Positions 30,357 through 56,188 of a DNA stretch of 64,000 bases are shown in pieces. The notes beneath the pieces were generated by a model, which had not been told where the DNA came from, did not search any database, and saw only the letters and a program-made list of their open reading frames with translations. Each line of letters opens with the position of its first letter. Within the stretch, counting starts at the first letter, position 1. The position numbers were made by a program, and so were the translations under genes. The DNA comes from Alphaproteobacteria bacterium (GTDB lineage: Bacteria > Pseudomonadota > Alphaproteobacteria > UBA828), in assembly GCA_965214705.1 (NCBI GenBank), contig CBDCCI010000002.1:2688001-2752000 (forward strand). Reading direction: 5' to 3'.

Positions 30357-31557
30357 TCGTCTGCCCAACAATCGAACACGCACAGCACGGCCTTGAGACT
30401 TTGCCAAGCGGAGCCTCTCTGGCTAGGAATTACCCGATCCCAGCGGAGCCTCGTCGATCATGGACCAAGACATCCTCTCCCAGCTTGCACCGAGCGGCAC
30501 CCTGCGCGCGGGTATCAACCTGTCCAACTTCCTGCTGGTGACGGGCAGGGCGTCGTCGGGCGACCCGATCGGCGTCGCACCCGACATGGCGCGCGCGATC
30601 GCAGATCGCCTGGGTGTCGCGGTCTCCTACGTCACCTTCGCCTCGCCCGGCGAACTCACCGATGCGGCGGGACGGGATCTCTGGGACATCGGCCTCATCG
30701 CCGCGGAGCCTGCGCGCGCGGAGACGATCGCGTTCTCGCCGCCATACGTCGAGATCGAGGCGACTTACATGGTTCCCGAGAGCAGCTCCCTCGCTGCGAT
30801 CGAGGACGTCGACCGCTCCGGCATCCGCATCGCGGTGTCGGACAGGAGCGCCTATGACCTGTACCTGACGCGCCATCTCAAGCACGCCGAGCTGGTGCGC
30901 GCGAAGGGCCTTGCGGCCGCCTTCGAGGTCTTCGTGAACGAGCAGCTCGACGCGCTCGCGGGCCTCAGGCCCGGTTTGATCGCGGACGCCGACAAGCTCC
31001 CCGGCGCTCGGATTCTCGACGGGCGCTTCACGGCCGTTCGGCAGGCGGTGGGCACAGCGACGACCAACCGTGCGGGCGCCGCCTTCCTGGCCAACTTCGT
31101 CGAGGAGGCCAAGGCGAGCGGTCTTATCGCCCGCCTGATCGATCGCCACGGCGTGACCGGTCGTCTCCTGGTCGCGCCGGAAAATCCCCCCTCGCCTGAG
31201 GATTGTGGATCCGAAGTGAATCCGCAGGCCCAGGCCGCCGGCGGTCTCCGGATGTCGCGTGAGCAGATGATCGACCTCGGGCAGAAGGCGCTTGAGCTCG
31301 TGGTAGAGCGGATCGAGAGCCTGCCGGGAGAGAATGCCTGGGAGGGCGAGTTCCGGTGGGTCCTCGAAGAGCAGTTGCTCGAGGACCCACCTGAGGACGG
31401 GAAGCCGGCCGCAGAGGTGATCGAGCGGGCGGCGCGCGAGGTTCTGCCGTTCACGGCGCGAATCGACCACCCCCGCTGCTTCGGGTTCATCCCGTCATCG
31501 CCCACCTGGCCCGGCGTGGTGGCCGACTTCATGGCCGCCGGCTATCACATCAATCAA

Positions 31558-33231: not shown

Positions 33232-34264
33232 ATCAATGCACCTGGCTGGTCGCGAGCGGCCCCAGCCAGCTGGAGCTGGTCGTCATCGACTGGTTCAGGC
33301 GTTGGCTCGGCTATCCGGAGGGCGCGGGCGGGCTCTTCACCAGCGGCGGCTCGGCGGCGAGCGTCGACGCCTTCGTCGCGGCGCGCGAGGCGGCGGGCCA
33401 CCCCGAACGCGCCACTGTCTACATGAGCGACCAGAGCCACAGCGCGCTCTCCCGCGCGGCGATGATCGTGGGCGTCCGCCGCGAGCGCATTCGCATGATT
33501 CCGAGCGACGCGGACTTCCGCATGGACATGGATGCCCTCGCCAGCGCCGTGGCCGCAGACCGCGACGCCGGCCTTAGCCCCATCGCGGTCGCCGCCAACG
33601 CCGGCACGGCGGGCACGGGCGCCATCGACCCACTTGAGGAGATGGCCGACTTCTGCGCGGCGGAAGGCCTCTGGCTGCATGTCGACGCCGCCTACGGCGG
33701 CTTCGCGGTGGTGACCGAGCGCGGCAAGCGGCTTCTCCGCGGCATCGAACGCGCCGATTCGGTCGGGCTGGATGCGCACAAGTGGCTCTTCCAGCCCTAT
33801 GAAGCGGGCTGCCTGCTGGTTAAGGACGAGAATACGCTCACGAACGCCTTCGGGGTCCGGCCCGACATCCTTCAGGACACGGTATGGGGAGCAAACCATC
33901 CCAACTTCTCGAACCTCGGCCTGCAGCTGAGCCGCTCGGTTCGTGCGCTGAAGGTCTGGATGTCGGTCCAGACCTTCGGCATGGCGGCGTTCCGGCGCGC
34001 TGTCGAGACGGGGATGCAGCTGGCCGAGACGGCGGAAGAGTACATCCGTGAGAGTCCAGTCCTGGAAGCCACAAGTACGCCGACGCTGGGGATCGTGTGC
34101 TTCCGGGTCAATCCGTCTGACGATGAACTCGACGAGGCGGTACTGGACAAGGTCAACAGGACGGTCCTCGCCCGCATGTTCTGGGATAATCCTGCGTTCA
34201 TGTCGTCAATGCTGCTGCACGGGACGTTCACGCTCAGGATGTGCATCATCAACCACACCACGAC

Positions 34265-34427
34265 GCGCACCTACGGTGCTAATCTACTGATAAAGCGTTG
34301 CTTTTTTCCTCCTGCTTTGGCCGATGGCCGCGGAATCGGTCCCCGATTTCGCCCCGGCTGCAACGCAGCGCAGGAGGAATATCAATGGCGACGCTTCGCC
34401 TCAACCAACGCCGCGTCGACGCGCTCA
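34265..34427 (+). repeat. Left arm of the long inverted repeat
   Basis: GCGCACCTACGG...GCGTTGCTTTTTTCCTCCTG...TTCGCCCCGGCTGCAACG...CAGGAGGAAT.TCAATGGCGACG...GCGCTCA. Confidence 0.85.
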
Positions 34428-34753
34428 AGCCCCGCAAGTCCGCCTACGACGTGCGCGACCGCGATCTCAAGGGCTTCGGCGTAAGGGTCCTGCCCTCGGG
34501 CGCCAAGCGCTACTTCGTCCATACCCAGCACCAGGGCCGGCGGGTCTGGAAGATCGTCGGCCAGGCCGGGGCCATCGGCGCCGACGAGGCCCGCGACCGG
34601 GCCAGGACCCTGGTGGCCTCGCTCCGCAAGGGCGACGGCGGCGAAGCCGCGGCGGCGCCGGACATCCCGTTCGAGACGGTCGCCGATGAAGTCTTGCGCC
34701 GCTACGCCCGGAACTGGAAGCCGTCCACGCTCAAGGTCAACCGCTACTACTAC

Positions 34754-36956
34754 CAGGGCGAATTTGTCCAAGCCTGATTTTTGAGTTCTGCGCTACGAGT
34801 TGACCTTGGGTCTGGTCAGCGCGCGCCAACCCTGCTATGGATTGAGGCGACTGGATTCGCGGTGTTCTGCTGCGGATCGGCTTCGAGCAGGGGGACGGTT
34901 TCTACGGTGGATCTTTCCGAGGTCGATGTCGCTGCTGTCCGGCCGGAGGACGAGGCCCGGTTCCGCGCGCTGATGGAGGGGCATCACTACCTGGGTGCGT
35001 CTGCGAAGGTGGGGGCGACGGCGTGGTACGTCGCCCATCGGCGCGGCGAGTGGCTGGCGCTGGCCGTGTTTTCGGCTGCGGCGCGCAAGTGCCGGGCGCG
35101 GGACGAGTGGATCGGCTGGGACTTCCGCACGCAGCACGGGCGGCTGCATCTGATCGCGAACAACGCGCGCTTCCTGATCCTGCCGGGACGGGGTGTTCCG
35201 AACCTCGGCTCGCGGGTGCTGGGGCTTTGCGCGCGGCGCTTGGCGCGCGACTGGCCGGCCCGCTTCGGCCACCCCGTGCTGATGCTGGAAACATTCGTGG
35301 ACGCGGCGAGGTTCCGGGGCACGGTCTACCGGGCGGCTGGATGGCTGGCGGTCGGCCAGACCCGCGGCTTCCGGCGCCACCGCTCGGGCTATGTCGCCGG
35401 CTCGACGCCGAAGCTTGTGCTGCTGCGCCCCCTGGTTCCCGACGCCTGCCGCCGGCTGTCCGCTGCCGGGCTGGATCGGGAGTTGTGGAAGAAAGGAGTT
35501 CCGAGAACCATGATCAGCGCCGCTCAGCAAGAGTCGCTCTACGCCTACTTCAAGGACATCGACGACCCCCGCACGCGCAAGGGACGGCGGCATTCGCTGC
35601 CCAGCGTGCTCGCGCTTGCGAGTGGCGCGACGCTCTGCGGCATGCGAGGCTGGAAGGCCATCTCCGAGTGGGTCGACGATCTCGGCGAGAAGGCGCTGGC
35701 CCGCTTCGGCGTGCGGCTGCGCGACGGGGTGCGCCGGCCGCCTTCGATGTCGACCATCCGCAATGTGGTGATCCGGGTGGACCCGGACCAGTTGGACGAG
35801 GCGTTGCGCAAGTGGCAGGAGGCCCACGGCTCAGGCGACGCGGCGCTTGCCATCGACGGCAAGACCCTGAGGGGGGCCATCGACGAGGACGGGACCCAGG
35901 CTCATGTCATGAGCGCGGTCGGGCACGAGACCAAGGCCACGCTCGCCCAAAAAAACTTCTCCTGAAAGTCGGGGCCGACGAGGAGACAAAGCGCACCAAC
36001 GAGATCGGCACCGTGACGGCGCTGGTGGACCTGATCCCGAACATCGCGGGCAAGACGGTCACGACGGACGCGCTGCTAACCCAGCGCAAGTTCGCCCGCT
36101 ACCTGCTCGACCGGGGCGCGCACTTCATGTTCATCGTGAAAGGGAACCAGAAGACCATGCGGGACGATGTGACGCTGCTCTTCGAAGAGGCGCCGGAGCG
36201 TGAGCCCGACTTCGAGGAGGAGGCCGCGCTGTCGCACGGACGCATCGAGCAGCGGGCAATCTGGACGAGCACGGAGTTGAACGGCTTTCTCGACTTCCCG
36301 GGCGTCGGCCAGGTCTTCATGATCGAGCGCTCCCGCCAGGACAAGAAGACCGGCGAGACCGGCACCGAGACCGCCTACGGGATCTCCAGCCACACGCCCG
36401 GCACGGCCAACGCGCAGAGCCTGCTCGCCCTCAACCGCGGCCACTGGTGCATCGAGAACAGCTCGCACCACTGCCTCGACTGGACCTGGGACGAGGACCG
36501 CAGCCGCATACGCACAGGCTTCGGCCCCGAGAACATGACCCGCCTGCGGCGCTTCGCCATCGGCCTGATCAAGGGCCGGGGGCTCGAGGTCGCCTCGACC
36601 GTGCGCAGGCTCGCCCGCAACGTCCGCGCCGTCCTCGACTTCCTGAAAATGACCGGGAACACCCAGCCGAGGACCGCAAAGCGCGCCGCGCCGGCCTGAA
36701 CCCCGGCGCCCGGCAAGCCGGGCGCAAAGATCGTACCTGCCCTCGCTCCCGACCACGCCGGTGGCGCGATCCATCATGTCGGGGCACCGCCAAATCGCGA
36801 CGGCACCGCCCGCACCGCCCACACGGTAATGCCAGAACCCTCTGACCGAACCGGATGCTCGGCCAGACCCCGCCGCAAACCCCGCAACAAAGCCGATCCG
36901 CACAACCCGTGGCCAGAACTCAACTGCCTACCAGCCGCTTGGACAAATTTGCCCTG
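34754..36956 (+). mobile_element. ISAs1-family IS with DUF4338/DruA-like domain, copy 2 (2203 bp)
   Basis: Same IRs as copy 1; 10-bp TSD CTACTACTAC at 34744-34753 and 36957-36966; differences from copy 1 seen at 35662 and 36207. Confidence 0.92.
34781..36699 (+). CDS. DUF4338/DruA-like plus ISAs1 transposase with a -1 frameshift at 35950-35956; start uncertain (GTG 34907 plausible)
   Basis: ORF1 ends GCC CAA AAA AAC TTC TCC TGA; the -1 frame continues KKLLLKVG...RTNEI into the DDE core. Confidence 0.85.
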
Positions 36957-37725
36957 CTACTACTACCGGAACCAGATACTACCCTGGTTCAAAGGACGCT
37001 CCATCGCCGGCATCGCCGCAACCGACGTACAGTGCTGGTTTGCATCCCTTCACGAGACCCCCGTGTCGGCCGACCGCTCGGCCCCCGTGCTCTCGGTCAT
37101 CATGCGCCAGGCCGAAGTCTACGGCTACCGGCCGGAGGGGACCAATCCGTGCGCGGGCATCAAGCGCTATCGGCGCCAAGGGCGGGAGCGCTTCCTGTCC
37201 ACCGCCGAGATAGGCCGGCTGGGCGAGGTGCTGGCACGCCACGAGGCGGACCAGCCGCAGGCCGTGGCGATCGTACGGCTGCTCCTGCTCACCGGTTGCC
37301 GGGCAGGCGAGATCGTCTCCCTGAAATGGCGCGACTACCGCGAGGGCAAGCTGTTCCTGCGCGACTCCAAGTCCGGTCCGCGCACGGTCTGGCTCTCGTC
37401 TGCCGCGTGCGCGGTCCTCGACGGCCTTCCCCGCAAGGCAACCTGGATCTTCCCCTCGCCGCACAGGGACAGCTGTCTGTCCGGAGCGACGGTCACTCGT
37501 GTCTGGCATTCCGTGAGGGCGGAAGCGGACCTGCGCGACGTCCGCCTTCACGATTGCCGGCACTCGTACGCCAGCATGGCGCTCGCGCAAGGCGAGACGG
37601 TCCTGACCATCGGCCGGCTGCTCGGACACCGCGATCCGGCGACGACGCTGAAGTACATCCATCTGTCCGACACCATGGTGCGCGAGGCCGTCGACATGGT
37701 CGGCGCTGCCTTGGAGGGCTGACAC

Positions 37726-38913
37726 ATGGCCGCGAGGAGGCGGCGTCTGACCGACGCCAGCGTGGCCCGGCTGATGCCGGCGGCCCGGGAGTACACGGTC
37801 TGGGACACGCGGCAGGCGGGTCTCGGCGTGCGGGTCCGTCCGTCGGGGCACCGCAGCTTCGTGTATTGCCGGAAGGGCGACGGCGGCGCGCGCAGGATCA
37901 CGCTGGGACCTGCCGCGGTGACGGGCGTCGAGGAGGCGCGCGCGCGGTGCCTGGATATCGAGACCGGAGCGCGGTCCGGCGGGCCGGAACGCGGAGCGGT
38001 GCCGACGTTCGGCAAGTTCGCCGCGGGACCGGGCAAGGCGTGTTTCGAGCGGGGCAAGCCGTCCACGCGAGAGGCCCAGGCCAGGGTCGTCGCCGCGCGC
38101 CTGCTTCCGGCCTTCGGCTCCCTGCCGCTCGACCGGATCGACCGGGCCGGCGTGACCCGCTGGTTCGACGAATACAGCCGCACCGCGCCGGGCGGGGCCA
38201 ATGAGGCACTGGGTCTGCTCTGTCGAATCCTGAACCATGCGATCGTCTGCGGCCATCTCCGGTCGAACCCGGCCCGGGGCATCAAGCGGAACCCCAGGCC
38301 GAAGCTCACGCGCTTCCTGTCGCGCGGGGAGATCCGCCGCCTTCACCGCGAGCTGGATCGTTACGCCGGCGCGCGGCCGTCGCGCGCGCGGCAGGCGGAC
38401 ATCATCCGCCTGCTGCTGCTGACCGGCTGCCGCAAGAGCGAGATCCGGACCCTGCGCTGGCGGGACGTGGACGGGGACACGCTCAATCTGGCCGACGCCA
38501 AGACCGGCCCGAGACGGGTTTTCCTCAATGCGCCGGCCCGCGCCATCGTGGAACGGCAGCCGCGATCCGGGAGTGCCCTCGTCTTCCCCTCGCCGATCGA
38601 CCCGGGTAGGCCACTGTGCTCCGACTTGCCGCTCTGGTACTCGGTGCGCAGGGAGGTCGGGGTCGAGGACGTGCGAATTCATGACCTTCGGCATACGTTC
38701 GCCAGCCACGCCGTGCTGCAAGGCGTCCCACTACCCGTTGTCTCGCGCCTGCTCGGCCACAAGCACCCGAGCATGACGCTTCGCTACGCGCACGTCGGCG
38801 ACCGCGAGACCGAGGCGGCGGCGGAGCGCATCGGCGCGGCCATCGCGCAGGCGCTGGGACTGGGCACTCAACTGCACCCCTCGGATGCGTCGAGCGGCAG
38901 CTCGTCCGGGTGA
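37726..38913 (+). CDS. Tyrosine integrase 2 (N-terminal arm-binding domain), intact
   Basis: LTDASVARL...VWDT...GLGVRVRPSG...RITLG; LTGCRKSE; DAKTG; IHDLRH; LLGHK; TLRY; starts 3 nt after the int1 stop. Confidence 0.92.
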   Translation: MAARRRRLTDASVARLMPAAREYTVWDTRQAGLGVRVRPSGHRSFVYCRKGDGGARRITLGPAAVTGVEEARARCLDIETGARSGGPERGAVPTFGKFAAGPGKACFERGKPSTREAQARVVAARLLPAFGSLPLDRIDRAGVTRWFDEYSRTAPGGANEALGLLCRILNHAIVCGHLRSNPARGIKRNPRPKLTRFLSRGEIRRLHRELDRYAGARPSRARQADIIRLLLLTGCRKSEIRTLRWRDVDGDTLNLADAKTGPRRVFLNAPARAIVERQPRSGSALVFPSPIDPGRPLCSDLPLWYSVRREVGVEDVRIHDLRHTFASHAVLQGVPLPVVSRLLGHKHPSMTLRYAHVGDRETEAAAERIGAAIAQALGLGTQLHPSDASSGSSSG

Positions 38914-39073
38914 GCGCATCGACCCGGCGCTCGGTGAGGCGAACCGTCGCCATTGACATTCCTCCTGCTTTCCGTTGCAGCCGGGGCGAATTCGTGGACC
39001 GATTCCGTGTGTTCCGGCCAAGTCAGGAGGAAAAAAGCAACGCTAAGTCAGTATATTAGAGCCGTAGGTGCGC
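38911..39073 (-). repeat. Right arm of the long inverted repeat, with an integrase-start relic MATVRLTERRVDAL
   Basis: Reverse complement of the left arm; retains the AGGAGG RBS and ATG. Confidence 0.85.
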
Positions 39074-39107
39074 CGAACACACACGACAATACAGGCGATG
39101 TGTTCTT

Positions 39108-40538
39108 CTACATCGCCTCTAGCCCGAATCGCTCGACCGCTTCGAGCGTCTCACGAACGTCGTCCCACGATGTGGTGTGGTTGATGATGCACATCCTGAG
39201 CGCGAACGTTCCACGCAGCATCGTCGACGACATGAACGCCGGATCGTCCCAGAACATGCGGGCGAGCACGGTCCTGTTGACCTTTTCCAGCACTTCCTCG
39301 TCGAGGTCAGCGCCCGCCGGATTGACCCGGAAGCACACGATGCCCAGCGTCACCGTGTTCAGGGACTCCAGGACCGAACTCGCGCGGACGTACTCTTCAG
39401 CCTGGGTGGAAAGTTCCATCCCTCTGGCGACCGCACGCCGAAACGCCGCCATCCCGAAGGTCTGAACCGACATCCAGACCTTGAGGGCGCGAACCGAGCG
39501 GCTCAGCTGCAGGCCGAGATTGGAAAAATTGGGGTGGTTCGCCCCCCAGACCGTGTCCTGAAGAATATCGGGTCGGACCGCGAATGCATCCGCGAGCGTG
39601 CTCTCGTCCTTCACAAGCAGGCAGCCCGCCTCGTAGGGCTGGAAGAACCACTTGTGCGCATCCAGTCCGACCGAATCGGCGCGTTCGATTCCGCGGAGAA
39701 GCCGCTTGCCGCGCTCGGTCACCACGGCGAAGCCGCCGTAGGCGGCGTCGACATGCAGCCAGAGGCCTTCCGCCGCGCAGAAGTCTGCCATCTCCTCCAG
39801 CCTATCGATGGTCCCTGTGCCGGTCGTGCCGGCGTTGGCGGCGACCGCGATAGGGCTGAGGCCGGCGTCGCGGTCTGCGGCCACAGCGCGAGCGAGGGCA
39901 GCCATGTCCATGCGGAAGTCCGCGTCGCTCGGAATCATGCGGATGCAGTCGCGCCGAATGCCGACGATGAACGCTGCGCGGGAAAGGGCGCTGTGGCTCT
40001 GGTCGCTCATGTAGACAGTGGCGCGTTCGGGGTGGCCCGCCGCCTCGCGCGCCGCAACGAAGGCGTCGACGCTGGCAGCCGAGCCGCCGCTGGTGAAAAG
40101 GCCGCCCGCGCCCTCCGGGTAGCCAAGCCAACGCCTGAACCAGTCGATGACGACCAGTTCCAGCTGGCTAGGCCCGCTTGCAACCAGCCACGTACTTTGG
40201 TTGATGTGATAGCCGGCGGCCGCGAAGTCGGCCACCACGCCGGGCCAGGTGGGCGACGACGGGATGAAGCCGAAGCAGCGTGGATGATCAAGACGTGTGG
40301 CGTAGGGGAGAATGTCGCGCGCCGCCCGCTCGATCACCTCTTCTGCGGACCTCCCGTCCTCTGGCGGGTCCTCGAGCAGCTGGTCTTCGAGGACCTGCCG
40401 GAACTCACCCTCCCAGGCATTCTCTCCCGGCAGGCTCTCGATCCGCTCTACCACGAGCTCAAGCGCCTTTTGCCCGAGGTCGAGCATCTGCTCACGCGAC
40501 ATCTGGAGTTCGGCAGCCGCCTGCGCGTCAAGATCCAC
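39108..40538 (-). CDS. Group II PLP-dependent decarboxylase (aromatic-L-amino-acid decarboxylase-like); original N-terminus detached by an IS1634-like element
   Basis: HPRCFGFIP; TSGGS; LHVDAAYGG; DAHKW; LRMCIINHTT; removing the IS adds in-frame MADRPVTRKTGDPLPDDFKSE from ATG 42701. Confidence 0.9.
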   Translation of the reverse strand: MDLDAQAAAELQMSREQMLDLGQKALELVVERIESLPGENAWEGEFRQVLEDQLLEDPPEDGRSAEEVIERAARDILPYATRLDHPRCFGFIPSSPTWPGVVADFAAAGYHINQSTWLVASGPSQLELVVIDWFRRWLGYPEGAGGLFTSGGSAASVDAFVAAREAAGHPERATVYMSDQSHSALSRAAFIVGIRRDCIRMIPSDADFRMDMAALARAVAADRDAGLSPIAVAANAGTTGTGTIDRLEEMADFCAAEGLWLHVDAAYGGFAVVTERGKRLLRGIERADSVGLDAHKWFFQPYEAGCLLVKDESTLADAFAVRPDILQDTVWGANHPNFSNLGLQLSRSVRALKVWMSVQTFGMAAFRRAVARGMELSTQAEEYVRASSVLESLNTVTLGIVCFRVNPAGADLDEEVLEKVNRTVLARMFWDDPAFMSSTMLRGTFALRMCIINHTTSWDDVRETLEAVERFGLEAM

Positions 40539-40549
40539 CTCGGACTTGA

Positions 40550-42645
40550 CCCATCTTTGCCATTTTGGCGCGCGCCTGCGACCTAAGTAGTTGCGATGAT
40601 GGGCTGATTTTCTGGCCCATCTGGGATTATGGCACTACGTTTGTGCGCTCATCGCGACACTCCCGGGAGCACCGCCCGGCGCCTGTGGGGATCCACCGTG
40701 AGGCCCGCCGCCTGCGCGATGACGCGCGCCTCGGCGTCGGGTTGAGCATCCTGGCGGATGACGATGCGGTTTCCGTCCACCTCCCGGATGGTGGAGGTGA
40801 GACGCACCCAGCCCGCGAGCTTGTCGCGGATCGTACTCCAGCGGTCATGCAAGCCGTGCGCCGCCAGACGGGTTCGCAGCAGATGAACCGCGTGGTAGGC
40901 GAGGACGGCGATGAACAGGTGGGCGGCGATGCGCGAGGTCTTGGAGTGCCAGACCGGGCGCAGGCCGATTTCGGATTTCAGGCTGCGGAAGGTGGCCTCG
41001 AGCTCTGTGAGCTTCCAGTAGGTTCGGACCACGGTTTCAAGATCCCACTCGACGTGGCTGGTGCGCAGCACATAGATGCCCGCTTGGCGGTCGCGCTCGG
41101 CATGGAGAGCGTTGCGCCTCCAGCGGACCGCACTGGCCCGCCCCTTCTCTCCGGGCTCGACCTCGATGTCGTACTGACGGTGGACGCGCCTGTACCTTTC
41201 CTTCAGCCGGCCCAGCTTCTCCATCACCTTGGTGAACTGCTTGATGTGGTTCTTCTTCGACAGCCCGCCATGCAGGGCGCGCAGGGCGTCCTCGAAGTTG
41301 TGACGCTGACGGGCGAGCACGGCCTCGTCCTTCTGCTGGCGCTCATGGCTCCAGACGCACAGGTGCGCTTCGTCGTCCCCTGCCGCGAGACGCCAGGCGC
41401 GGGCATCGTGGCCGGCCCGGGTTTCGAAGGCGGCATCGGCTTCGCGCCCGGGCGGCGCCGAGACGCCGCGGCGAACGGTGATCCAGTGATAGCCGCCCGC
41501 CCGCAGCCAGGCGAGGTTGGCCTCGGTGGAGATGCCGGCGTCCATGATGACCGTGGGCCTGGGGGCGTTGCTGCCGCGCGCTTGGCATTCCAGCCGCCCG
41601 ATGGCGTCGGCGAGAGTGGCCGGCTCGGAGATGTTGCCGGGCAGGATCTCGCTGTGCTGCGGAAAGCCGGCCTGGTTCAGCGACAGGGCCAGGGTCACGA
41701 TCGGACAATCGTCACGCCTCTGCTTCGAGCGCCCGAAGCGGGCCAGCGCGGAGCTGGGCCGTCCGGTCATATGGGTGTTGGTCAGGTCGAAGAAGACGAT
41801 GGTGTCGGGGATGCCGAAGAGATCGCGCTCCCGGGCGCACAGCGCCTCTTCAAGCGCCGCGCGGTGACGCCACAAGAGGTCGCCGATGCGGTAGAGCTTG
41901 CTGAGCGTGAGCGACTTGCCGCTGTCGACATCGAGCAACTCCAGGGTCGCGCTGTTCGCGCTCAGCCAGCGGAAGGCCTCGCGCTCGCTGGAGGGATGGA
42001 TCATGCGCGCGACCACCAGTGCCGCCGCGATGCGTGCGTCGCGCTCACTTGCGCCCAGCCTCTCCAGCGTCTCGATGAAGCGAAGGTCGTCAAGCGCGGC
42101 GAGAGCCAGGCGCTCGCAGCCCACCGAGCGGACCTGTTCGTGGGAGAGGCTATCGAGACGGACCGTGGCCAGGTCGCTCTCGTCCCCGGGCCGCGACGCG
42201 CCGAGATCGCGGGCGTGAAGCCGCCGTACGACGTCCTCGGCGACGGGGCGCAAGGCGGCATCCGGCTCCAGCAGCGGCTCGCTGCCGGCGAGAAGGGTTT
42301 CGATCAGAAGCGCCAATTCGCGCCATTGCTCCTCGGGCACACCGAAGTCGGCGCCGAGATTGAGGAGCGTGACCTGGCGCACCCTTCCGCCGATGCGTTC
42401 GCTGCGCACGAGGCGGTAGGTGGCATAGCGCTCGCCACCGTCTCCGCGACCGGTGAGGGTTTTGCGAATGAACATGGCGGCAGGGTCACGGACAGTTTGC
42501 GGACTGTCAAGGAGCGCCGGCCCACAGACCAAAGATTATGGCACTACAATGGACTTCCCAAAACACAATCCAACAAAATCAGTGCCTTAGATCCCAAAGG
42601 CTACCCAAAATCAGGCCTTCGGGACCGAAAAGTGGCAAAGATGGG
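40550..42645 (-). mobile_element. IS1634-family-like IS (2096 bp)
   Basis: IRs CCCATCTTTGCCA/TGGCAAAGATGGG; TTGA on both flanks (40546-40549, 42646-42649). Confidence 0.88.
40649..42475 (-). CDS. IS1634-like DDE transposase
   Basis: YRLVRSERIGGRVRQVTLLNLG; FFDLTNT; FGRSKQRRDD; IMDAG; YWKLTELEATFRSLKSEIGLRPVWH. Confidence 0.88.
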   Translation of the reverse strand: MFIRKTLTGRGDGGERYATYRLVRSERIGGRVRQVTLLNLGADFGVPEEQWRELALLIETLLAGSEPLLEPDAALRPVAEDVVRRLHARDLGASRPGDESDLATVRLDSLSHEQVRSVGCERLALAALDDLRFIETLERLGASERDARIAAALVVARMIHPSSEREAFRWLSANSATLELLDVDSGKSLTLSKLYRIGDLLWRHRAALEEALCARERDLFGIPDTIVFFDLTNTHMTGRPSSALARFGRSKQRRDDCPIVTLALSLNQAGFPQHSEILPGNISEPATLADAIGRLECQARGSNAPRPTVIMDAGISTEANLAWLRAGGYHWITVRRGVSAPPGREADAAFETRAGHDARAWRLAAGDDEAHLCVWSHERQQKDEAVLARQRHNFEDALRALHGGLSKKNHIKQFTKVMEKLGRLKERYRRVHRQYDIEVEPGEKGRASAVRWRRNALHAERDRQAGIYVLRTSHVEWDLETVVRTYWKLTELEATFRSLKSEIGLRPVWHSKTSRIAAHLFIAVLAYHAVHLLRTRLAAHGLHDRWSTIRDKLAGWVRLTSTIREVDGNRIVIRQDAQPDAEARVIAQAAGLTVDPHRRRAVLPGVSR

Positions 42646-43073
42646 TTGAAATCGTCAGGCAAGGGGTCACCTGTCTTCCTTGTCACCGGTCGATCCGCCA
42701 TTTTCACTTCGTACTTTCATTCCCAGATCCCAACACGTGCGCCGCGGGAAGGAAACTCCGAGCAGCAAATGCGGCGCGCCGCTGTATGCGGCCAACAACG
42801 AAAACCCATCCCGGAAACGGCGGTCACACGGTAGTAGAGACGGCAACATGGAGCACTGCCCCGGACGGGACGCTGCGCTCTCCACGCCCAAAGCCCCAGC
42901 TTCGACGTCGCAGACCGGGTTCTCACCTTGTTTGGCGTGATCAGATAGTTCATTGGCGCGTTCGGGTGATGATCTGGCACGTCTTTGCCCCCACATTTCT
43001 GGCTACGACAACACTTGGCAACAACGCGGGCGATCTGGCCTGCAATCAAGACCCTATTGAAAGGAGACCCAAC

Positions 43074-44088
43074 GTGAGCCAAACAATATTCATTACCGGC
43101 GCTTCGAGCGGCATCGGCAGGGCGACGGCGATTTTCTTTCAGGAAAGGGGATGGAACGTCGTTGCGACGATGCGCCGTCCCGAAAACGAAAAGGAGCTGA
43201 CCCAACTCGACAACGTGTTCGTTACGGCACTCGATGTTCAGAACCCCGCTTCGATCGCCGATGCGGTGGAAGCAGGCATCGAGCGATTCGGCAAGATCGA
43301 AGTGCTGTTGAACAACGCGGGTTACGGATCCTACGGCGTGCTCGAAGCCACGCCGATGGAAAAGGTGCGGCGGCAGTTCGACGTCAACGTGATCGGCCTG
43401 CTGACCCAACTCGACAACGTGTTCGTTACGGCACTCGATGTTCAGAACCCCGCTTCGATCGCGATGCGGTGGAAGCAGGCATCGAGCGATTCGGCAAGAT
43501 CGAAGTGCTGTTGAACAACGCGGGTTACGGATCCTACGGCGTGCTCGAAGCCACGCCGATGGAAAAGGTGCGGCGGCAGTTCGACGTCAACGTGATCGGC
43601 CTGCTGGAAACCACCAAGACCGTGCTTCCCCATTTCCGAGCCAATGGGGGTGGCGCCATCATCAATGTTTCTTCGGCGGCAAGATGACCTTTCCGCTCGG
43701 CACCCTTTACCACGGCTCCAAGTTCGCAGTGGAGGAACTATCCGAGGCTTTGAGCTTCGAGATGGAAGCCATTGGGGTGAAGGTCAAGATCGTCGAGCCG
43801 GGCATAATCAACACCGACTTCAGCGGCCGCTCTCTCGACATCAATAACGATGAGAGCCTGACTGAATACCAGGAGTTCGTCGGCAAGATCTTCACTGCCT
43901 TTGGCTCGCGGACGGACCCCGGATCGGAGCCGGAGACGGTCGCCGAGGTGATCTACGACGCCGCAACCGACGGATCGAACCAGCTGCGCTACACCGCCGG
44001 GCCCGACGCCGTCGAGATCATCGCCAGCCGCAAGGCTGCTGACGACGCGACTTTCATCGGCGGCATCAAGGACCAATTCGGGCTTTGA
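43074..44088 (+). pseudogene. SDR oxidoreductase with an internal tandem duplication and two frameshifts
   Basis: ITGASSGIG, LLNNAGYG (twice), YHGSK and VEPG spread over three frames. Confidence 0.85.
43196..43602 (+). repeat. Tandem duplication of 204 + 203 bp
   Basis: Units 43196-43399 and 43400-43602, with GCTG at each junction; second unit lacks one C (GATCGCCGATG vs GATCGCGATG). Confidence 0.92.
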
Positions 44089-44108
44089 TTCGCCGGGGAG
44101 TGACAAGG

Positions 44109-45710
44109 ATGAAAGCGAAAGAGGCCGTTGACCGTTTGGACCCGAACAAGTGGTCCCGAACCCCGCCCGCAGAGCGCCTGCATTTCCTTGAGCAAGTGCG
44201 CGGGAACCTCAAGACGTATGGCAACGAGCTCGCCGCCGCCGACACGAGGATGAAAAACGGACTGATGGGCGAGACCCTGTTCAACGATGCGCTCTCGAAA
44301 GTTGCCACCATGGTGCCGATGGCGAACACCGTCACCGCGGCGATCGAGCTCTACGAAGAGCTGGTGCACGGCGAGATGCCAGAACCGCTGGCGATCACCA
44401 AGATTGACAAAGGCCTCTACGACATCAATGTGTTTCCGTCGTCGGCGAAAGACCGACTGATGTACGGTGATCGCACGGAAGTGCTGCGCGTGACAGGCGA
44501 GCCGAAACAGATCGATCCCATGGATAAGCCCGCCGGCATCGTCGCTGTGCTTGGAGCAGGCAACTACTCGTCGTCGCTGGAAATGCTCAAGGCGATGTTC
44601 TTCGAGAACTGCACCGTCGTGCACAAACCCCACCACTTGAATGCCGCGACGGATGCGGTGTGGGAGAAGATTATGGAGCCGCTGGTGGAGCACGGCGTGC
44701 TCAGCTTCGTCGACCACGACCAAGGGCGCGACCTCACCGTCGATCCGCGGCTCAGCAAGATCTACTTCACGGGTGGCACGAGTACGGCGCTGGCAATCAT
44801 GAAAGCCACCGATACGCCGATGGTCAGCGAGTGCGGTGGCAACAACCCCTGCCTGATCGTGCCGGGAGAACGGCCGTGGACCGACAAGGAAATCACCCAT
44901 CAGGCCCAGCAGATAGCCACGATCTCCAAGATGAACGGCGGCGCCGTCTGCGGTCGGGTCCAGACGGTGGTGACCTCCAGGAACTGGCCGCAGCGGGAAG
45001 CATTCCTGGTCGCGCTGAGACGGGCAATAGCCGAGGATACGCCGGCAGCGGGCACCTATTATCCCGGGTCCGACGAAACCGCCCAGGCCTTCCGTGAAGC
45101 CTACCCGAACGCCGAGATCCTCGAGCCGGAGGGCGGAAGATTCGAGCATGCCGATTTCGTGCTGATCACCAACGCCGAAGAGCAAGGCTACGCCACGGCC
45201 CACGAGGCCTTTTGCCAGATCATCGGCGAAGTACCGCTGGACACGGAGGCGAATGCGGATGACTTTCTGCCCAAGGCGGTCGCCTTCTGCAACGCCCACC
45301 TGCTCGGTACGTTGGCAGGCTGCATCCTGATCGACGAAGACACGAAGAAGGTGCATCAGGCCGCGCTGGATCAGGCAGTGACCGACATGGAGTATGGGGC
45401 GATCGCGATCAACACCATGCCCCCCTTTATCTTCCTCAGCCCTTGGCTGACCTGGGGAGGCAACGAGGAAGGCAAAGAGTTCGTTTCCGGCCACGGCAAT
45501 TTCGGCAACGGGATGAATTTCGAGAATGTGCAAAAGTCGATCATGACCGCCGGTTTCATGTCTCCCGGACACATGATCCAGACCAACAAGACTGCCTTCG
45601 ATCGCATGGCGACCAACATGGCGCGCTATGCCGTCGAACCGAACTGGATGAACCTCATCCGGCTGATGGGCGGCGCCGTCGCTGGTTCTTTGCGCCACAA
45701 GGATTTCTAG
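44109..45710 (+). CDS. Aldehyde dehydrogenase family protein
   Basis: VLGAGNY; IYFTGG; ECGGNNP; catalytic GAVC; EAFC; LLGTL. Confidence 0.85.
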   Translation: MKAKEAVDRLDPNKWSRTPPAERLHFLEQVRGNLKTYGNELAAADTRMKNGLMGETLFNDALSKVATMVPMANTVTAAIELYEELVHGEMPEPLAITKIDKGLYDINVFPSSAKDRLMYGDRTEVLRVTGEPKQIDPMDKPAGIVAVLGAGNYSSSLEMLKAMFFENCTVVHKPHHLNAATDAVWEKIMEPLVEHGVLSFVDHDQGRDLTVDPRLSKIYFTGGTSTALAIMKATDTPMVSECGGNNPCLIVPGERPWTDKEITHQAQQIATISKMNGGAVCGRVQTVVTSRNWPQREAFLVALRRAIAEDTPAAGTYYPGSDETAQAFREAYPNAEILEPEGGRFEHADFVLITNAEEQGYATAHEAFCQIIGEVPLDTEANADDFLPKAVAFCNAHLLGTLAGCILIDEDTKKVHQAALDQAVTDMEYGAIAINTMPPFIFLSPWLTWGGNEEGKEFVSGHGNFGNGMNFENVQKSIMTAGFMSPGHMIQTNKTAFDRMATNMARYAVEPNWMNLIRLMGGAVAGSLRHKDF

Positions 45711-45755
45711 GCGGTCGAACTGGCGAAGCTGAACCCGGCGCGGTAGGAAGAGAAG

Positions 45756-46751
45756 GTGGTTACATACGACTACGCGCTCGACGTAGGCTGGCGCGCGCTC
45801 CTCGCCGATCTTGGAGTATCCCCCGCAGATGTGCTGCGGCGTGCGGCTTTACCGGAAGACCTTTTCTCGCGGCCGGATGCGCGACTCGAGCCACAGGCGT
45901 TCTATCGCTTTTGGGAGAGCCTCGAAGCCGAGTTCGACGATCCGCTGTGGCCTATTCACCTGTGCCAGGCCGTACGGTCGGAATCATTCTCCCCTCCCCT
46001 GTTCGCCGCCATGTGCAGCTCGAACTTCCTCTCCGCAGCGAAGAGGATCAGCCAGTACAAGCCGCTGATCGGACCTCTGCGGCTCGACGTCGCCGAAGAA
46101 GGGGAATTGGTCCGGCTCACACTGGAATGGTTGGGGTCAGCATCGAATCCCCCCGTTTCACTGGTGACCGTCGAGCTATTATTCTTCGTGTGCTTGATCC
46201 GCATGGCGACGCGAGCCCCGATCTGCCCAATCGAGGTCACCACGCCTGTTCCCCCGGAACCTGCCCAACCATATGAGGAGTTCCTTGGCGCGCCCGTCAG
46301 TAGTTCTGCTACGCATACCCTGCGCTTCAGCCGCGACGACGCTTTGCTTCCGTTTCTTACGGCAAGCGACGGCATGTGGCAGGCGTTCGAGCCCGAGTTG
46401 CGCCGCCGACTCGCTGAGCTCGACGAATCGGCCAAGATGTCGGAACGCGTGCGTGCGGCGTTGCTGGAATGCCTGCCAAGTGGGCGAATATCGATAGACT
46501 CGGTGGCCAAAACGCTCGCGCTGAGCAAGCGTACGCTCCAGCGCCGACTGAGCGACGAAGACACGAGCTTCCAGTTTGTCCTGAAAGCCACGCGTGAGGC
46601 ACTTGCCCGCCACTACCTGCAACAGACAACGCTGCCGGCAGCGGAGATCTCCTTTCTGCTCGGCTTCGAAGAGCCGAACTCGTTCTACCGAGCCTTCAGC
46701 GACTGGACGGGGCAGACGCCGGACAGTGTTCGCCAAGCTGCGCTCCATTGA
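45756..46751 (+). CDS. AraC-family transcriptional regulator
   Basis: VAKTLALSKRTLQRRL; ISFLLGFEEPNSFYRAF..WTGQTP. Confidence 0.92.
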   Translation: MVTYDYALDVGWRALLADLGVSPADVLRRAALPEDLFSRPDARLEPQAFYRFWESLEAEFDDPLWPIHLCQAVRSESFSPPLFAAMCSSNFLSAAKRISQYKPLIGPLRLDVAEEGELVRLTLEWLGSASNPPVSLVTVELLFFVCLIRMATRAPICPIEVTTPVPPEPAQPYEEFLGAPVSSSATHTLRFSRDDALLPFLTASDGMWQAFEPELRRRLAELDESAKMSERVRAALLECLPSGRISIDSVAKTLALSKRTLQRRLSDEDTSFQFVLKATREALARHYLQQTTLPAAEISFLLGFEEPNSFYRAFSDWTGQTPDSVRQAALH

Positions 46752-46769
46752 TACTCAATCTCAACGGGC

Positions 46770-47092
46770 CGGCGATTGCAGATATCATTCCCAACGCACA
46801 CGCCTCACAGGCCATCGTGAACGCGTCGATCTTGCCGCAGCTATTCATCTCCGATGTGTTCATCCGGATGGAGAACGCGTCGGCGTGGCCCACGACCTTC
46901 GCGGACGTGTTCCCGGTGCGACACATGGAGCTGGCCCGACATGCATGCTTCGAACCCTTTGAGACCGTAAGTGGATTCGAGTGGGTGCTGGCCGTCATGG
47001 CGACATGGCTGGTCGGTGGACTGCTGGTCACGGTGCGCTCTTTCCGGTGGGAGCCGCGCTGCTGGGCGCCGCTCCGGCTGGCGCAGACTTAA
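46770..47092 (+). pseudogene. C-terminal fragment of an ABC-2 type permease
   Basis: AIVNASILPQLFISDVF...ADVFPVRH...RSFRWEPR; no N-terminal half. Confidence 0.6.
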
Positions 47093-47093
47093 A

Positions 47094-49185
47094 CCGAACT
47101 TCCGTTAGCATCTGATTGCCGATCTGGCCGGATTTTGCCTGTTTCCGCCCTTTCTGCGCAGTTTAGCGCCCGGTTTGGCGCGAAATTCCCGAAATGATCG
47201 CCGAAACCGCCGCGATTCGGCGCTCCAGCGCTGGATCACGCCGTCCCGGCGCATCCACCAAAACCTGAATACTAGTCAGTAGATAGTTTTCTCGTTACGA
47301 TAATTGCTCCGCATTCCCAAGCCTTTCCGATATGATTGCCGCGATTCGCTAGGCAGATCGATATGCACATCGAAACCACCCGGTCCGGAAACTCCCGCTG
47401 CCACCTCCTCAGACAGTCCTACTGGCAGGACGGAAAACCCAAGAAGCGCACCCTGTGCAACCTCTCCGCCCTCCCGGAACACGCCATCGAAGCCCTCAAA
47501 CGCGCCCTCAAGCGCGGACCCGCCCTCAATCCCGACAGCGCCGACGTCGAACTGCGCGCCAGCCGGGCGCACGGCGCCGTCAGCGCCGTTCTCGGCACCC
47601 TTCGCGACATCGGCCTCGACCGCGTCATCTTCCACCGGCCCGATCGCCGCAGGGCCCTCGTCATCGCCATGATCGTCGCCCGCCTGATCCGGCCCGGCGC
47701 CAAGCTGCGCGTCGAGCGCGAACTGGGAGCGGCCGGCACAACCACCCTCGCCGCCCTGCTCGGCGTCGAAGGCGTCAGCGTCGACGAACTCTACGCCGCC
47801 ATGGACTGGCTGGGCGCGCGACAGGGCGCGATCGAGCGCAAGCTCGCCCGGCGCCATCTCGGAGAGGACGATCTCGTCCTCTACGACGTGTCCTCGAGCT
47901 ACATGGAGGGCAACGCCTGCCCCATGGCGAAGCGCGGCTATTCGAGGGATCGCCGGGGCGACCGCCCGCAGATCGTCTACGGCCTCCTCTGCACCCGCGA
48001 TGGCTGTCCGGTCTCGATCGAGGCCTTCGCCGGCAACACCGGCGACCCGATGACTCTGGCCAGCCAGGTGCGCAAGGTCCGCGACAGCTTCGGCATCCGG
48101 CGGGTGGTGTTGGTGGGGGACCGCGGCATGATCGCGCAGACCCGCATCGACCGCGACCTCGCGCCCAACGGCATCGACTGGATCACGGCGCTGCGCGCAT
48201 CCTCGATCCGCAAGCTCGTCGACCGGGGGCATGTCACGCCCGGCCTGTTCGACACCTGGGGCCTCGCGCGGGTGACCACGCCGGACTATCCCGGCGAGAG
48301 GCTGATCGTCTGCTACAACCCGGTTCTGGCGGCCGAGCGCAAGCGCAACCGCGACGGGCTGCTCAATGCGACCGAGACGGACGCGCGCGATTTCGCCGCG
48401 CGCCACGCCGCCGGCGACATCGACCGCGACGAGTTGAACCGTCGGCTGGGAACCTTGCGCCGCCGCAAGATGGCCAAGCACTTCCGCTTCGAATTCGACG
48501 AGGGCAGCGGCACCTTCAGTTGCGAACGCGACCGGGCGTCGATCGACGCCGAGGCCGCCCTCGACGGTCTCTACGTCATACGCACCAACGTGGACGAGGA
48601 CGAGATCGAGGACGTCGAGGCGGTCCGCGTCTACAAGAGCCTGTCACGCGTCGAGCGCGCCTTCCGCTCGCTCAAGACGGTGTCGTTGCGGATCCGCCCG
48701 ATCTTCCACTGGCGCGACGACCGAGTACGGGCGCATCTTCTGATCTGCATGCTGGCTTGGTATGTCGAGTGGCACATGCGCCGCAGGCTGGCGCCGCTGC
48801 TGTTCGCCGAGGAGGACGGAGCGCCGCTGTCCGCGAACCCGGTGGCGCCGCCGGAACGCTCGGAAAAGGCCCGGCGCAAGGACAAGCGCCGAAAGACGGA
48901 TGATGGACTTGCGGTGTGCGACTTCCGCGATCTCCTCGGCCATCTCGGCACGCTTGCTGCCACTGAGATCGCCACCGGAACCGACTTCGCCGTGCCCGCC
49001 CTGACCAAGCCGACCGAACTGCAGGAAAGGGCGTTCGCATTGCTCGGGCTGCGGCCCCATCCTGCGCCCGCGCTCACCGAAAAGGGGATGACCACCGCCA
49101 AACCTGTCCAGTAATCGTCGCTTCGAAACTCGCCGAAACCCCTGCCGCACAACGGTTCTTTGACTATCCCACACTGGAAGTTCGG
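47094..49185 (+). mobile_element. Second, distinct IS1634-family-like IS (2092 bp)
   Basis: IRs CCGAACTTCC/GGAAGTTCGG; 6-bp TSD CTTAAA at 47088-47093 and 49186-49191. Confidence 0.88.
47363..49114 (+). CDS. IS1634-like DDE transposase
   Basis: LLRQSY...KKRTLCNLS; LYDVSSSY; GYSRD; VGDRGM; YKSLSRVERAFRSLK...RPIFHW. Confidence 0.9.
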   Translation: MHIETTRSGNSRCHLLRQSYWQDGKPKKRTLCNLSALPEHAIEALKRALKRGPALNPDSADVELRASRAHGAVSAVLGTLRDIGLDRVIFHRPDRRRALVIAMIVARLIRPGAKLRVERELGAAGTTTLAALLGVEGVSVDELYAAMDWLGARQGAIERKLARRHLGEDDLVLYDVSSSYMEGNACPMAKRGYSRDRRGDRPQIVYGLLCTRDGCPVSIEAFAGNTGDPMTLASQVRKVRDSFGIRRVVLVGDRGMIAQTRIDRDLAPNGIDWITALRASSIRKLVDRGHVTPGLFDTWGLARVTTPDYPGERLIVCYNPVLAAERKRNRDGLLNATETDARDFAARHAAGDIDRDELNRRLGTLRRRKMAKHFRFEFDEGSGTFSCERDRASIDAEAALDGLYVIRTNVDEDEIEDVEAVRVYKSLSRVERAFRSLKTVSLRIRPIFHWRDDRVRAHLLICMLAWYVEWHMRRRLAPLLFAEEDGAPLSANPVAPPERSEKARRKDKRRKTDDGLAVCDFRDLLGHLGTLAATEIATGTDFAVPALTKPTELQERAFALLGLRPHPAPALTEKGMTTAKPVQ

Positions 49186-49264
49186 CTTAAAGCCCGGCGC
49201 CGCTCAACTCCTCCTTCAGTGCGGGCAATCGACCAAAGCGTTCTCGCAACTCGGCAATGAAGCG

Positions 49265-49309
49265 GGTCTGCGGGGGGAGGGGCTCGGCAACGACCCCTCC
49301 TACCCTGCC
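49265..49309 (+). ncRNA. Probable orphan group II intron 3' end (domain VI) remnant
   Basis: GGTCTGCGGGGGGAGGGG-CTCGGCAACGA-CCCCTCCT(A)CCCTGCC stem with a bulged A; domain V not recognisable. Confidence 0.45.
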
Positions 49310-49421
49310 GGAAAAACTCGCAGCACCCGCACGCTCCGAGCGTACCATTGAACAGAACTGTCACGGCCGCGCAACGATGCGCGCATCCAGTCTTGAAACC
49401 CAGTTCCTCGACATCCCCGAG

Positions 49422-49979
49422 CTACACCACTGATATTCCGAACAGCGCGTCGTGATAGTGCATCAGCAGCCCGGCCACGACGAGACCGCCAACAACCGCC
49501 GCCACGTCCATCGCGATACGGGGCGCCCTGCTTACGGCCGGTCGCCTGGCCCGCACAATCGCGCTGAGCGTCGCCACCATTGCGAATCCCGCGAAGCCGC
49601 CGAAGAGCACGATGGAATGCAGATCGCCGTTCGCGAGGAGGTGGGCAAGCGCCCACAGAAGTAGCCCGAGCAACATCGGATGCCGGACAGCTGCACGGAT
49701 GTGGGTAGGCATGTTGGCGGCCGCGAAGAGAACCAGCCCGATCGGTACCGCAACCAACGCCGCGTCGTGCCCCCAGCTCGGAGGAACGTACACCGGATCG
49801 GAAGGCGCTTCGGAGTATCCCCACACAGTCAAGGCGAGGCCCGCCAGCGCTACGAGCGAGAACACGCCGCGGTAGGCTCTCTCGCCCATGAGTGCCACCA
49901 TGGCGGCACGCAGGGGCGCAACGCTCGGGACCAAGTGTATGGTGAAGAACAGCACGAGGCCAACAATGAGAAGAGGCAT
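49422..49979 (-). CDS. nnrU: NnrU family membrane protein
   Basis: GLVLFFTIHLVP; YRGVFSLVAL; VRHPMLLG..LWALAHLLANGD. Confidence 0.85.
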   Translation of the reverse strand: MPLLIVGLVLFFTIHLVPSVAPLRAAMVALMGERAYRGVFSLVALAGLALTVWGYSEAPSDPVYVPPSWGHDAALVAVPIGLVLFAAANMPTHIRAAVRHPMLLGLLLWALAHLLANGDLHSIVLFGGFAGFAMVATLSAIVRARRPAVSRAPRIAMDVAAVVGGLVVAGLLMHYHDALFGISVV

Positions 49980-50186
49980 GAGGATGTTCCTGACTGATGC
50001 GTCACGATCATGCGAAACAAACGCTGCAATATGCGAGGCGAAATTTCCGCTCGCGTGGCCTCGGCTCCACTAAACCCACGGAAAGCGATGCTACACGCTG
50101 TTCGGCGTTTCTTACAGATTACTCCGTATTGCAATCACCACGTGCTCGGCGGCGATGCCTCCCGATCGCGCCGATCATGCAGGCTC

Positions 50187-51242: not shown

Positions 51243-51400
51243 GCGCCTCTCTCGAATAGCGACTGCCCGAGCCGTTGCTGTTGCCCCGAGAGCGCGGATC
51301 AGTTTCTATGCTGCCCGCTGCTGCCGCGGGGTCGCCGACCACATGATGGCGTTTCGGACCGCCTTGTGAAAGGATCGTGACCGAACCACGGAGAGACTCC

Positions 51401-51811: not shown

Positions 51812-51940
51812 GGTGTCTTGGCGGCCACCGCCCCGACTTCGACGTCGAACCGCCGTTGGCTGCACACGATAAGGAGATGGACGTCAACGGCGTCGGTTGC
51901 CGACAACGCTATGCTAGCACGTCAAGCTGAAATATCGGAT

Positions 51941-53442: not shown

Positions 53443-53498
53443 GGATGAGACGGCCGCCAGGGCCTTGGCGGGCCTTCCTGTACGCGGGGGTCAGGTCG

Positions 53499-54636: not shown

Positions 54637-54678
54637 AAGGGTTGGGCAGGCTCTCTCTCGAGAGCCTGCCCAACCCTT
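54637..54678. repeat. Perfect 19-bp hairpin abutting the IS91-like element end
   Basis: AAGGGTTGGGCAGGCTCTC-TCTC-GAGAGCCTGCCCAACCCTT. Confidence 0.9.
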
Positions 54679-56182: not shown

Positions 56183-56188
56183 GCGCCG

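Follow-up and report, generated by a model that had tools for sequence, protein, structure and literature searches.

A coupled pair of arm-type tyrosine integrases as the probable left-end module of a 38.5-kb mobilizable island from a family with short ACACC junctions

Islands with P4/SXT-type integrases rely on a single integrase and a single fixed site, in many cases a tRNA gene. The closest described precedent for the locus presented here is found in the MTnPi elements of Prevotella. MTnPi1-3 of Prevotella intermedia are mobilizable transposons, that is integrative mobilizable elements (IMEs), which combine two tandem tyrosine integrases with a relaxase and an 11-bp att sequence and occur in several copies (PMC4755523). 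One MTnPi copy without a second integrase failed to excise; the integrase left to it had diverged as well, so that a need for both is only suggested (PMC4755523; PMC5704250). According to the 2017 IME review, no canonical IME with a MobF relaxase was known (PMC5704250). The present analysis concerns two tyrosine integrase genes, int1 and int2, in a stretch of 64,000 nt (the window, C3:2688001-2752000) of a 7.92-Mb alphaproteobacterial genome in three contigs (C1, C2 and C3). With a probability that we put at roughly 85%, the two genes serve as the integration module on the left of an integrative mobilizable island that measures 38,492 bp and is inserted near the 3′ end of a decarboxylase gene, dec1.

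The two genes are enclosed by an inverted repeat. Positions 34265-34427 and 38911-39073 were aligned by a repeat finder over 163 nt without gaps, with 84% complementarity and differences at 26 of the 163 positions. The outer start of both arms is GCGCACCTACGG, and each arm contains AGGAGG and an integrase start. Between the arms, int1, which is interrupted by a 2,201-bp insertion sequence (IS) of the ISAs1 family, and int2 are spaced by 3 nt; both are arm-type tyrosine integrases with the residues R-K-HxxR-H-Y according to Pfam domains and translations, and the int2 stop codon (38911-38913) forms the inner edge of the right arm. The inverted repeat, the passenger IS, the pair of arm-type integrases and the position of the int2 stop had been described correctly in the initial annotation of the window. 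It had also stated that the unit showed no target duplication and no matching 3′ remainder of the decarboxylase gene, and this was wrong. The missing 3′ end of dec1 follows directly after a second ACACCACGAC, at C3:2760757, which corresponds to window-equivalent position 72757 and is outside the window (window-equivalent positions above 64000 lie on C3 past the window end, in the sequence labelled L011).

The island delimited by the two copies of ACACCACGAC extends over 38,492 bp, from position 34265 to window-equivalent 72756. In the related genomes G006 and G008 the dec1 ortholog is uninterrupted and has one core, in the context ...AACCACACCACGACCTGGGACGACG..., with matching flanks on both sides. 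In G006, the 800 nt past the junction are 92-94% identical over 783 aligned nt, and the upstream gene for a solute-binding protein is conserved. These empty sites show the whole 38.5 kb to be a single inserted interval. The island junctions are free of tRNA genes, the sole tRNA gene of the window being at 28024-28100. The layout of the window island, with integrases, its own relaxase module, direct repeats at the borders and an empty site elsewhere, reads as that of an IME. The former statement that the unit has no cargo genes holds only for the wrongly drawn 4.8-kb boundaries and does not apply to the 38.5-kb island. The coordinates of the features are collected in Table 1.

Table 1. Features of the window island and its surroundings. 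Plain positions refer to the window; L011 positions lie past the window end.
Feature	Position	Strand	Remarks
dec1 5′ part, resident PLP-decarboxylase gene	31228..31557	+	87.6% identical to dec2 over 330 nt
IS cutting dec1 5′ part from the rest	about 31572-33233		transposase 31608-33173 (-); DDE_Tnp_1 and DDE_Tnp_1_4 domains
dec1 middle part up to attL	33234..34264	+	arm I1; pairs with dec2 in the 1,028-nt inverted repeat
Left 10-bp core ACACCACGAC (attL)	34255..34264	+	recurs 38,492 bp downstream; single in empty sites of G006 and G008
Left arm	34265..34427	+	conserved left terminus of the island family and first 14 int1 codons; 39 genome copies by profile
int1 5′ part	34385..34754	+	Arm-DNA-bind_3, PF13356, E 1.1e-9, 38.7 bits
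Passenger ISAs1-family IS	34755..36955	+	2,201 bp; splits int1; DruA-like N-terminus, DDE_Tnp_1_assoc, DDE_Tnp_1
int1 3′ part	36956..37722	+	catalytic domain, PF00589, E 4.7e-18
int2, intact arm-type tyrosine integrase	37726..38913	+	PF13356, PF22022, PF00589
DNA between conserved integrase module and right arm	38858..38910	.	53 nt; unalignable to siblings or to int1 past codon 14
Right arm	38911..39073	-	putative solo truncated sibling left end: terminus, RBS and 14 int1 codons only
Island interior	39074..64000	+	continues 8,756 bp past window end
dec2, intact PLP-dependent decarboxylase inside island	39108..40538	-	PF00282, E 8e-66
TrwC relaxase	L011:3863-7042		1,059 aa, helicase domains, E 1.7e-75
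NikA-like gene	L011:7577-7939	-	
RHH gene (putative ribbon-helix-helix)	L011:7936-8262	-	small, conserved right-end gene
Right-end motif CAGGAGGAGATTGCAACGCT	L011:8623-8642		
Tandem array, 7.1 copies of CTCATGTTTTGT	L011:8672-8756 (C3:2760672-2760756)		just inside right core
Right core ACACCACGAC	L011:8757-8766		then dec1 remainder
RBS, ribosome-binding site; PLP, pyridoxal phosphate; aa, amino acids.

The left arm belongs to a large family. Arm copies were collected by BLAST within the genome and then by an arm profile search at E <= 1e-3. BLAST returned 16 copies with 74-100% identity, both window arms counted; at least 12 of these are followed by a recognisable int1, and at least 8 have the full int1-int2 pair with 76-83% amino acid identity to the window pair. 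The profile detected 39 left ends. The motifs of the left arm are GCGCACCT.CGGTGC..., a GTTGC-T-run-CCTCCTG motif and the ribosome-binding site (RBS). In 7 full sibling copies in which the extent of homology was compared, similarity starts exactly at the left arm position, within about 10 nt of GCGCACCT, and continues from the outer end of the arm to the 3′ end of int2, near ...GCGCGGGCGTTGGA, but no further, and none of the 7 has an inverted arm behind int2. A convergent partner arm accompanies 1 of the 39 left ends, namely that of the window pair. Among 80 related loci of other genomes, 46 have an arm at the expected distance upstream of int1-int2, and a reverse-strand arm within 3 kb after int2 was found at none of these 46.

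These comparisons bear on the proposal of the initial annotation that the bracketed 2.6 kb (4.8 kb with the IS) are a self-contained transposon with two recombinases, or an invertible cassette, terminating in the two 163-bp arms. The arms do form a real 84% inverted repeat tightly bracketing both genes, and islands of the family do have partly inverted ends. However, the right arm contains an RBS and int1 codons and so is itself a left end, the convergent arrangement is confined to 1 of 39 arms here and was seen at 0 of the 46 loci in other genomes, the real right end lies 38.5 kb away together with the rest of dec1, and genuine right ends differ in sequence. The comparison of copies that had been put forward as a check returned siblings lacking the right-hand arm, and the pair is part of a larger island; by the refuting condition that the initial annotation had itself set, such a cassette is refuted, and it is left with almost no probability.

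The fallback offered at the same time, that the arm derives from a sibling element, was essentially right. The closest relative of the right arm is the arm at C1:514292-514454 (89.6% identity), while the left arm is only 84% identical to it. Past codon 14 no similarity to int1 was found, and the arm begins 34 nt after the stop codon of dec2. Its outer flank, TGTGTGTTCG, lacks ACACC and is one of two exceptions among the 39 left ends. As judged from these alignments, the right arm is the stump of the left end of a truncated sibling island and not an end of the window island. In the simplest history, a sibling island would have inserted beside dec2 inside the cargo, and a deletion would then have removed this sibling from int1 codon 15 to a point 53 nt past the conserved end of int2.

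A second inverted repeat, which the initial annotation did not list, flanks both arms. The two decarboxylase copies dec1 and dec2 form a 1,028-nt inverted repeat with 88% identity (33234-34261 and 39172-40199) directly outside the arms, with gaps to the left and right arm of 3 nt and 98 nt, respectively. The 1,028-nt (88%) and 163-nt (84%) repeats are therefore adjacent, collinear and separated only by a 95-nt length difference, as would be expected if arms and decarboxylase copies were one inverted segmental duplication of a decarboxylase with an island left end that later diverged. This origin is very unlikely. Over its last 300 nt up to the junction, dec1 has 99.7% identity with its uninterrupted counterpart in G006, with which both flanks are shared. 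In the 10 best-matching relatives, the single-site orthologs reach 84-87% identity to dec2 and are not accompanied by an arm. Furthermore, the right arm is matched better by an arm on contig C1 than by the left arm, and the left junction is a canonical ACACC followed by five further bases (N5), while the right one is not. On these identities, dec1 is the resident gene and dec2 a foreign copy in the cargo. That a disrupted dec1 stands opposite an intact, inverted, 88% identical dec2 beside the integrases could reflect chance, selection for replacement or capture from an earlier site.

An assembly artefact can be given almost no weight as the source of the inverted structure. The region is rich in repeats, and short-read contigs break at the arm boundary; the arms, however, differ at 26 of 163 positions, which is not expected of a collapsed or mirrored repeat. 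In addition, 318-nt contigs in two public sequencing runs (X16 and X17), which may be the source sample, span 38884-39201 without a difference, and the junction is therefore not a misassembly. The runs were searched as Logan assembled contigs. These are short and break at repeats, most of the listed joints trace back to paralogs, and nothing in them speaks for or against the presence of inverted, excised or circular forms.

The flanks of the left ends share a short motif. Positions -10 to -6 read ACACC at 35 of the 39 left ends, ACACG at 2 and neither at 2, against a frequency of ACACC of 1.6 per kb with both strands counted. At the 46 loci of other genomes, ACACC was found at -10 in 25 and within two positions in 16 more, and the remaining 5 have one-mismatch variants. 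Since an exact search for the flanking 10-mer is biased to identical repeats, left and right ends were paired again with an independent right-end profile, which was built from six islands with identical flanking 10-mers. The right ends of these six align over ~125 nt and contain CAGGAGGAAA..GCAAC, the inverted counterpart of the GTTGC-T-run-CCTCCTG motif of the arm. Apart from this shared inverted motif of ~20 nt the right ends are unlike the arm, and at least three terminal types occur. The profile gave 27 matches, 24 of them abutting ACACC (the window right end, behind its tandem array, is included).

With the criterion of the same strand and a distance of <=120 kb, 21 of the 39 left ends were paired with a right end. 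The two 10-mers of a pair are identical in 11 cases, match at 9 of 10 positions in 5, at 8 of 10 in 4 and at 7 of 10 in 1; the 11 islands with identical cores measure 13.9 to 58 kb. Island anatomy, junctions of ACACC+N5 in one orientation, duplication of the 10-bp core at occupied sites and a constant 3-nt coupling of the integrase genes were thus observed directly. A possible 'N15-CACC' motif after int2, which had at first suggested a minimal element that stops there, was dropped once the true right ends had been found.

Several copies bear signs of past movement. One island is inserted in an IS present in ~40 copies: ACACCGACAA occurs once in 36 unoccupied copies of this IS, with flanks overlapping by exactly 10 nt, and on both sides in occupied copies. 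Another island lies inside the int2 of a further island, and the interrupted int2 resumes right after the second core. Two islands are 99.2% identical over their first 1,200 nt, while their loci share only 24 nt beside the core.

An island is laid out as a left terminus with the RBS and start of int1, two translationally coupled paralogous integrases, variable cargo, a mobilization module on the right and a distinct right terminus, with a 10-bp core of ACACC and five lineage-specific bases on each side. Int1 and Int2 would act jointly on the circularised island, whose junction would hold one copy of the core. This core would recombine in a fixed orientation with a target ACACC followed by a matching or near-matching N5, and the island's own core copy would become the second direct repeat. 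Once excised, the island could be moved by a helper conjugation system. A carried core fits because related islands reuse one 10-mer, because five pairs have a single mismatch and because, to our knowledge, tyrosine recombinases do not duplicate their targets.

The same junctions could alternatively be true target-site duplications, made by a transposition-like staggered cut with fill-in or copy-in, so that the 10-bp repeats would not be carried by the island. In three independent targets (dec1, the IS and int2) the five variable bases agree with the target gene at either end, many different N5 are in use, and 12-nt tandem arrays are present at two right junctions. Target duplication of this kind is nevertheless unlikely: closely related islands reuse one 10-mer at loci otherwise little alike, differences at one core position in 5 pairs are expected if a carried core recombines with a near-match, and duplication of targets is not an established property of tyrosine recombinases. 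The preferred reading of a carried core can be extended, with odds that we place a little short of even, to the family as a whole. The islands would form an unnamed mobilizable family of marine alphaproteobacterial metagenome-assembled genomes (MAGs), in which a coupled paralogous P4/SXT-type pair inserts in one orientation at a minimal ACACC; the next five bases would be carried by the island and vary between lineages, and changing them would retarget it. If true, retargeting through N5 would explain how dozens of sites in genes, IS copies and other islands were colonised, with 39 left ends in a 7.9-Mb genome, and a site-specific recombinase system would be behaving like a transposon with a portable address.

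The following points weigh against the island interpretation and its extension. No right end was detected within 120 kb of 18 of the 39 left ends, and in 5 candidate pairs the two cores disagree at 2-3 positions. Beside the right arm the ACACC of 35 of 39 left ends is missing, so that the arm's origin by ordinary insertion is not proven. An excised circle or a restored empty site was seen for no copy in the assembled contigs, in which rare forms would not show. The 20 cargo open reading frames (ORFs) scanned leave room for a conjugation apparatus or an excisionase elsewhere in the island, and the model does not account for an intact, divergent and inverted dec2 beside the integrases of an island that disrupts dec1.

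Further observations were made on the cores. The islands C1:3377403-3381547 and C2:610227-640508 have integrase modules that are 97.6% identical and reciprocal cores: ACACCACCGG serves one of them as left core and the other as right core, and a single base separates their two other cores. The pattern suggests that islands on different contigs have recombined and swapped flanks. The core ACACCTTAAC of several islands is situated in a repeat (C1:430248, 433464, 4118661, 4138431 and 4139680; C3:548519). In unoccupied copies it is followed by ...CTGTCCGATTTTCCGGGGCCACCTCA, and related motifs occur after the right cores of other islands; the repeat probably represents the terminus of a further repeat family, used as a favoured landing site. 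Besides the array at the window right end, a second one was found in another island at C1:360200-360464, with 6 copies of ACACCACCCGCG starting with its right core. Both right-junction arrays are perfect 12-nt tandem repeats, and at left junctions the spacing from the core ACACC to the terminal GCACC is also 12 nt. The arrays may reflect slipped recombination between neighbouring core-like sites.

The integrases themselves are paralogs with 36-40% amino acid identity to each other. The 3′ part of int1 is 80-82% identical at the amino acid level to intact sibling int1 genes. In Int2 the PF13356 match is weaker (E 1.6e-6, 28.6 bits, cut-off 27), and Phage_integrase (PF00589) was assigned to both proteins (E 3e-21 and 5e-18). 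The catalytic set is readable in both translations as TGCR, KTG/KSG, HDLRH/HDCRH, GH and the tyrosine in LRYAH/LKYIH. An N-terminal Arm-DNA-bind_3 domain (DUF4102) together with catalytic R, K, HxxR, H and Y places both among IntSXT/P4-type integrases, and an NCBIfam scan of the two proteins gave only sub-threshold Xer and integron-integrase matches, hence no named family. The final ~18 codons of int2 run into non-conserved DNA, since conservation among siblings stops near 38857.

The terminal inverted repeats of the passenger IS are 19 bp long and its direct repeat, GCTACTACTACC, is 12 bp long; at least 20 near-identical full copies are spread over the three contigs. In this IS a DruA-like (PF14236) region is joined to ISAs1-type domains and read in two overlapping frames. 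Because the IS splits int1, the window copy of the island is probably immobile on its own, and its movement would need a sibling integrase pair in trans. Intact pairs are present, for example, in the islands C2:554446-569963 and C3:909025-922930.

The cargo of the window island includes several IS copies and genes for an aldehyde dehydrogenase, NnrU, a cytochrome-d1-like protein, a glyoxalase, a hydrolase and TetR, as well as an IS91-type Y2 transposase plus an integrase. These domains were assigned with Pfam to 20 ORFs picked by a heuristic based on G+C content at third codon positions (GC3), a scan that is not exhaustive and in which no conjugation apparatus was seen. The Y2 transposase (Y2_Tnp, Zn_Tnp_IS91) is located beside a SAM_4-type tyrosine recombinase at 54941-57229, and this pair recurs in 5 of 15 islands compared for gene content. 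At 42786-43514, a short-chain dehydrogenase ORF with an abnormal end contains a stretch of ~20 residues, TQLDNVFVTALDVQNPASIA, twice and looks like a rearranged or truncated gene beside an IS. Across the same 15 islands, the integrase pair was found in all 15, the small right-end gene in 11 and the relaxase in 9. The small gene was considered as an excisionase and dropped; it has no Pfam match, and its alignment resembles what we take to be a ribbon-helix-helix (RHH) relaxosome protein.

Of 20 other genomes of this genus that were searched, 16 had relatives of int2 (E <= 1e-60), as did 2 of 20 searched genomes from further afield. By record title, the related loci come from MAGs of Alphaproteobacteria, Defluviicoccus and Rhodospirillales. 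On plasmids of Shewanella and Photobacterium, overlapping pairs annotated as 'site-specific integrase' are 38-40% identical to int2. In Photobacterium damselae pPHDD1 and the Shewanella oneidensis MR-1 megaplasmid, ACACCCCACG is present about 130-165 nt upstream of the first integrase gene (L104:2230-2245 and L105:2195-2210), and the ACACC junction may extend to these distant gammaproteobacterial relatives.

For annotation, the bracketed integrase pair is an ordinary outcome of nested and decayed mobile elements and should not be recorded as a new transposon bounded by inverted repeats. The family is of interest in that it joins arm-type island integrases, normally single and locked to one site, to a two-integrase, multi-site and amplified lifestyle and to a MOBF relaxase. 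It supplies many natural pairs of left and right junctions, empty sites and near-identical copies at different sites, and the way in which the core sets the target is therefore directly testable.

Searches of the full-text literature on tandem or paired tyrosine integrases yielded no description of the present family, although supplementary tables could list such pairs. The integrases resemble the P4/SXT type (IntSXT, DUF4102) in the N-terminal Arm-DNA-bind_3 domain, the C-terminal catalytic domain and the full catalytic set (PMC8138268). The islands differ from P4/SXT-type islands in their two coupled paralogs, their tRNA-free junctions and their dozens of different ACACC+N5 sites.

The statement of the initial annotation that neither RIT nor Tn554 matches this layout stands. 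According to one report, Tn554 shares with the present family an adjacent tyrosine recombinase pair, asymmetric ends, insertion in a specific orientation and a short junction core (PMC10214605). Unlike Tn554, with its TnpA, large TnpB and small TnpC, the present islands have no conserved third gene after int2; Int2 has an ordinary size of about 380-395 amino acids, with no large TnpB, and the core is 10 bp long and identical on both sides in 11 pairs. In the same report, strand-biased circularizing integrative elements (SE) consist of intA-tfp-intB-srap, GInt of ginABCD and RIT of three recombinases; all are islands or transposon-like units that resemble the present family in having more than one tyrosine recombinase gene on the left, imperfectly inverted termini and cores of a few bases (PMC10214605). 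Here, by contrast, two genes 3 nt apart are followed by nothing conserved in the 15 islands compared. In that report SE synteny blocks were confined to Gammaproteobacteria, Alphaproteobacteria had no GInt blocks, and SE and GInt are both described as putatively non-mobilizable (PMC10214605), whereas the present family carries a relaxase. BIM elements of Cupriavidus likewise have a two-gene module with a tyrosine recombinase but were dropped from the comparison: the second BIM gene is a non-recombinase whose function is not known (a predicted SMC-domain protein), and there is no second integrase (PMC3414803).

The likeness to the MTnPi elements comprises a tandem tyrosine integrase pair at one end together with a relaxase, a short core duplicated at the borders, a copy number above one per genome and the use of other mobile elements as insertion sites. 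The two groups differ in host, Alphaproteobacteria here and Bacteroidota there, and in copy number, with 39 left ends here against 2-6 copies. The integrases are paralogous here, whereas those of MTnPi are reported to have no significant mutual homology (PMC4755523). Both present integrases carry Arm-DNA-bind_3. The relaxase here is of the TrwC/MOBF type, a family that the 2017 review found in no known canonical IME (PMC5704250). IMEs with an integrase duo are thus a kind of element already known; what is new is an IME family that pairs two paralogous P4/SXT-type integrases with short ACACC cores and is mobilizable and heavily amplified.

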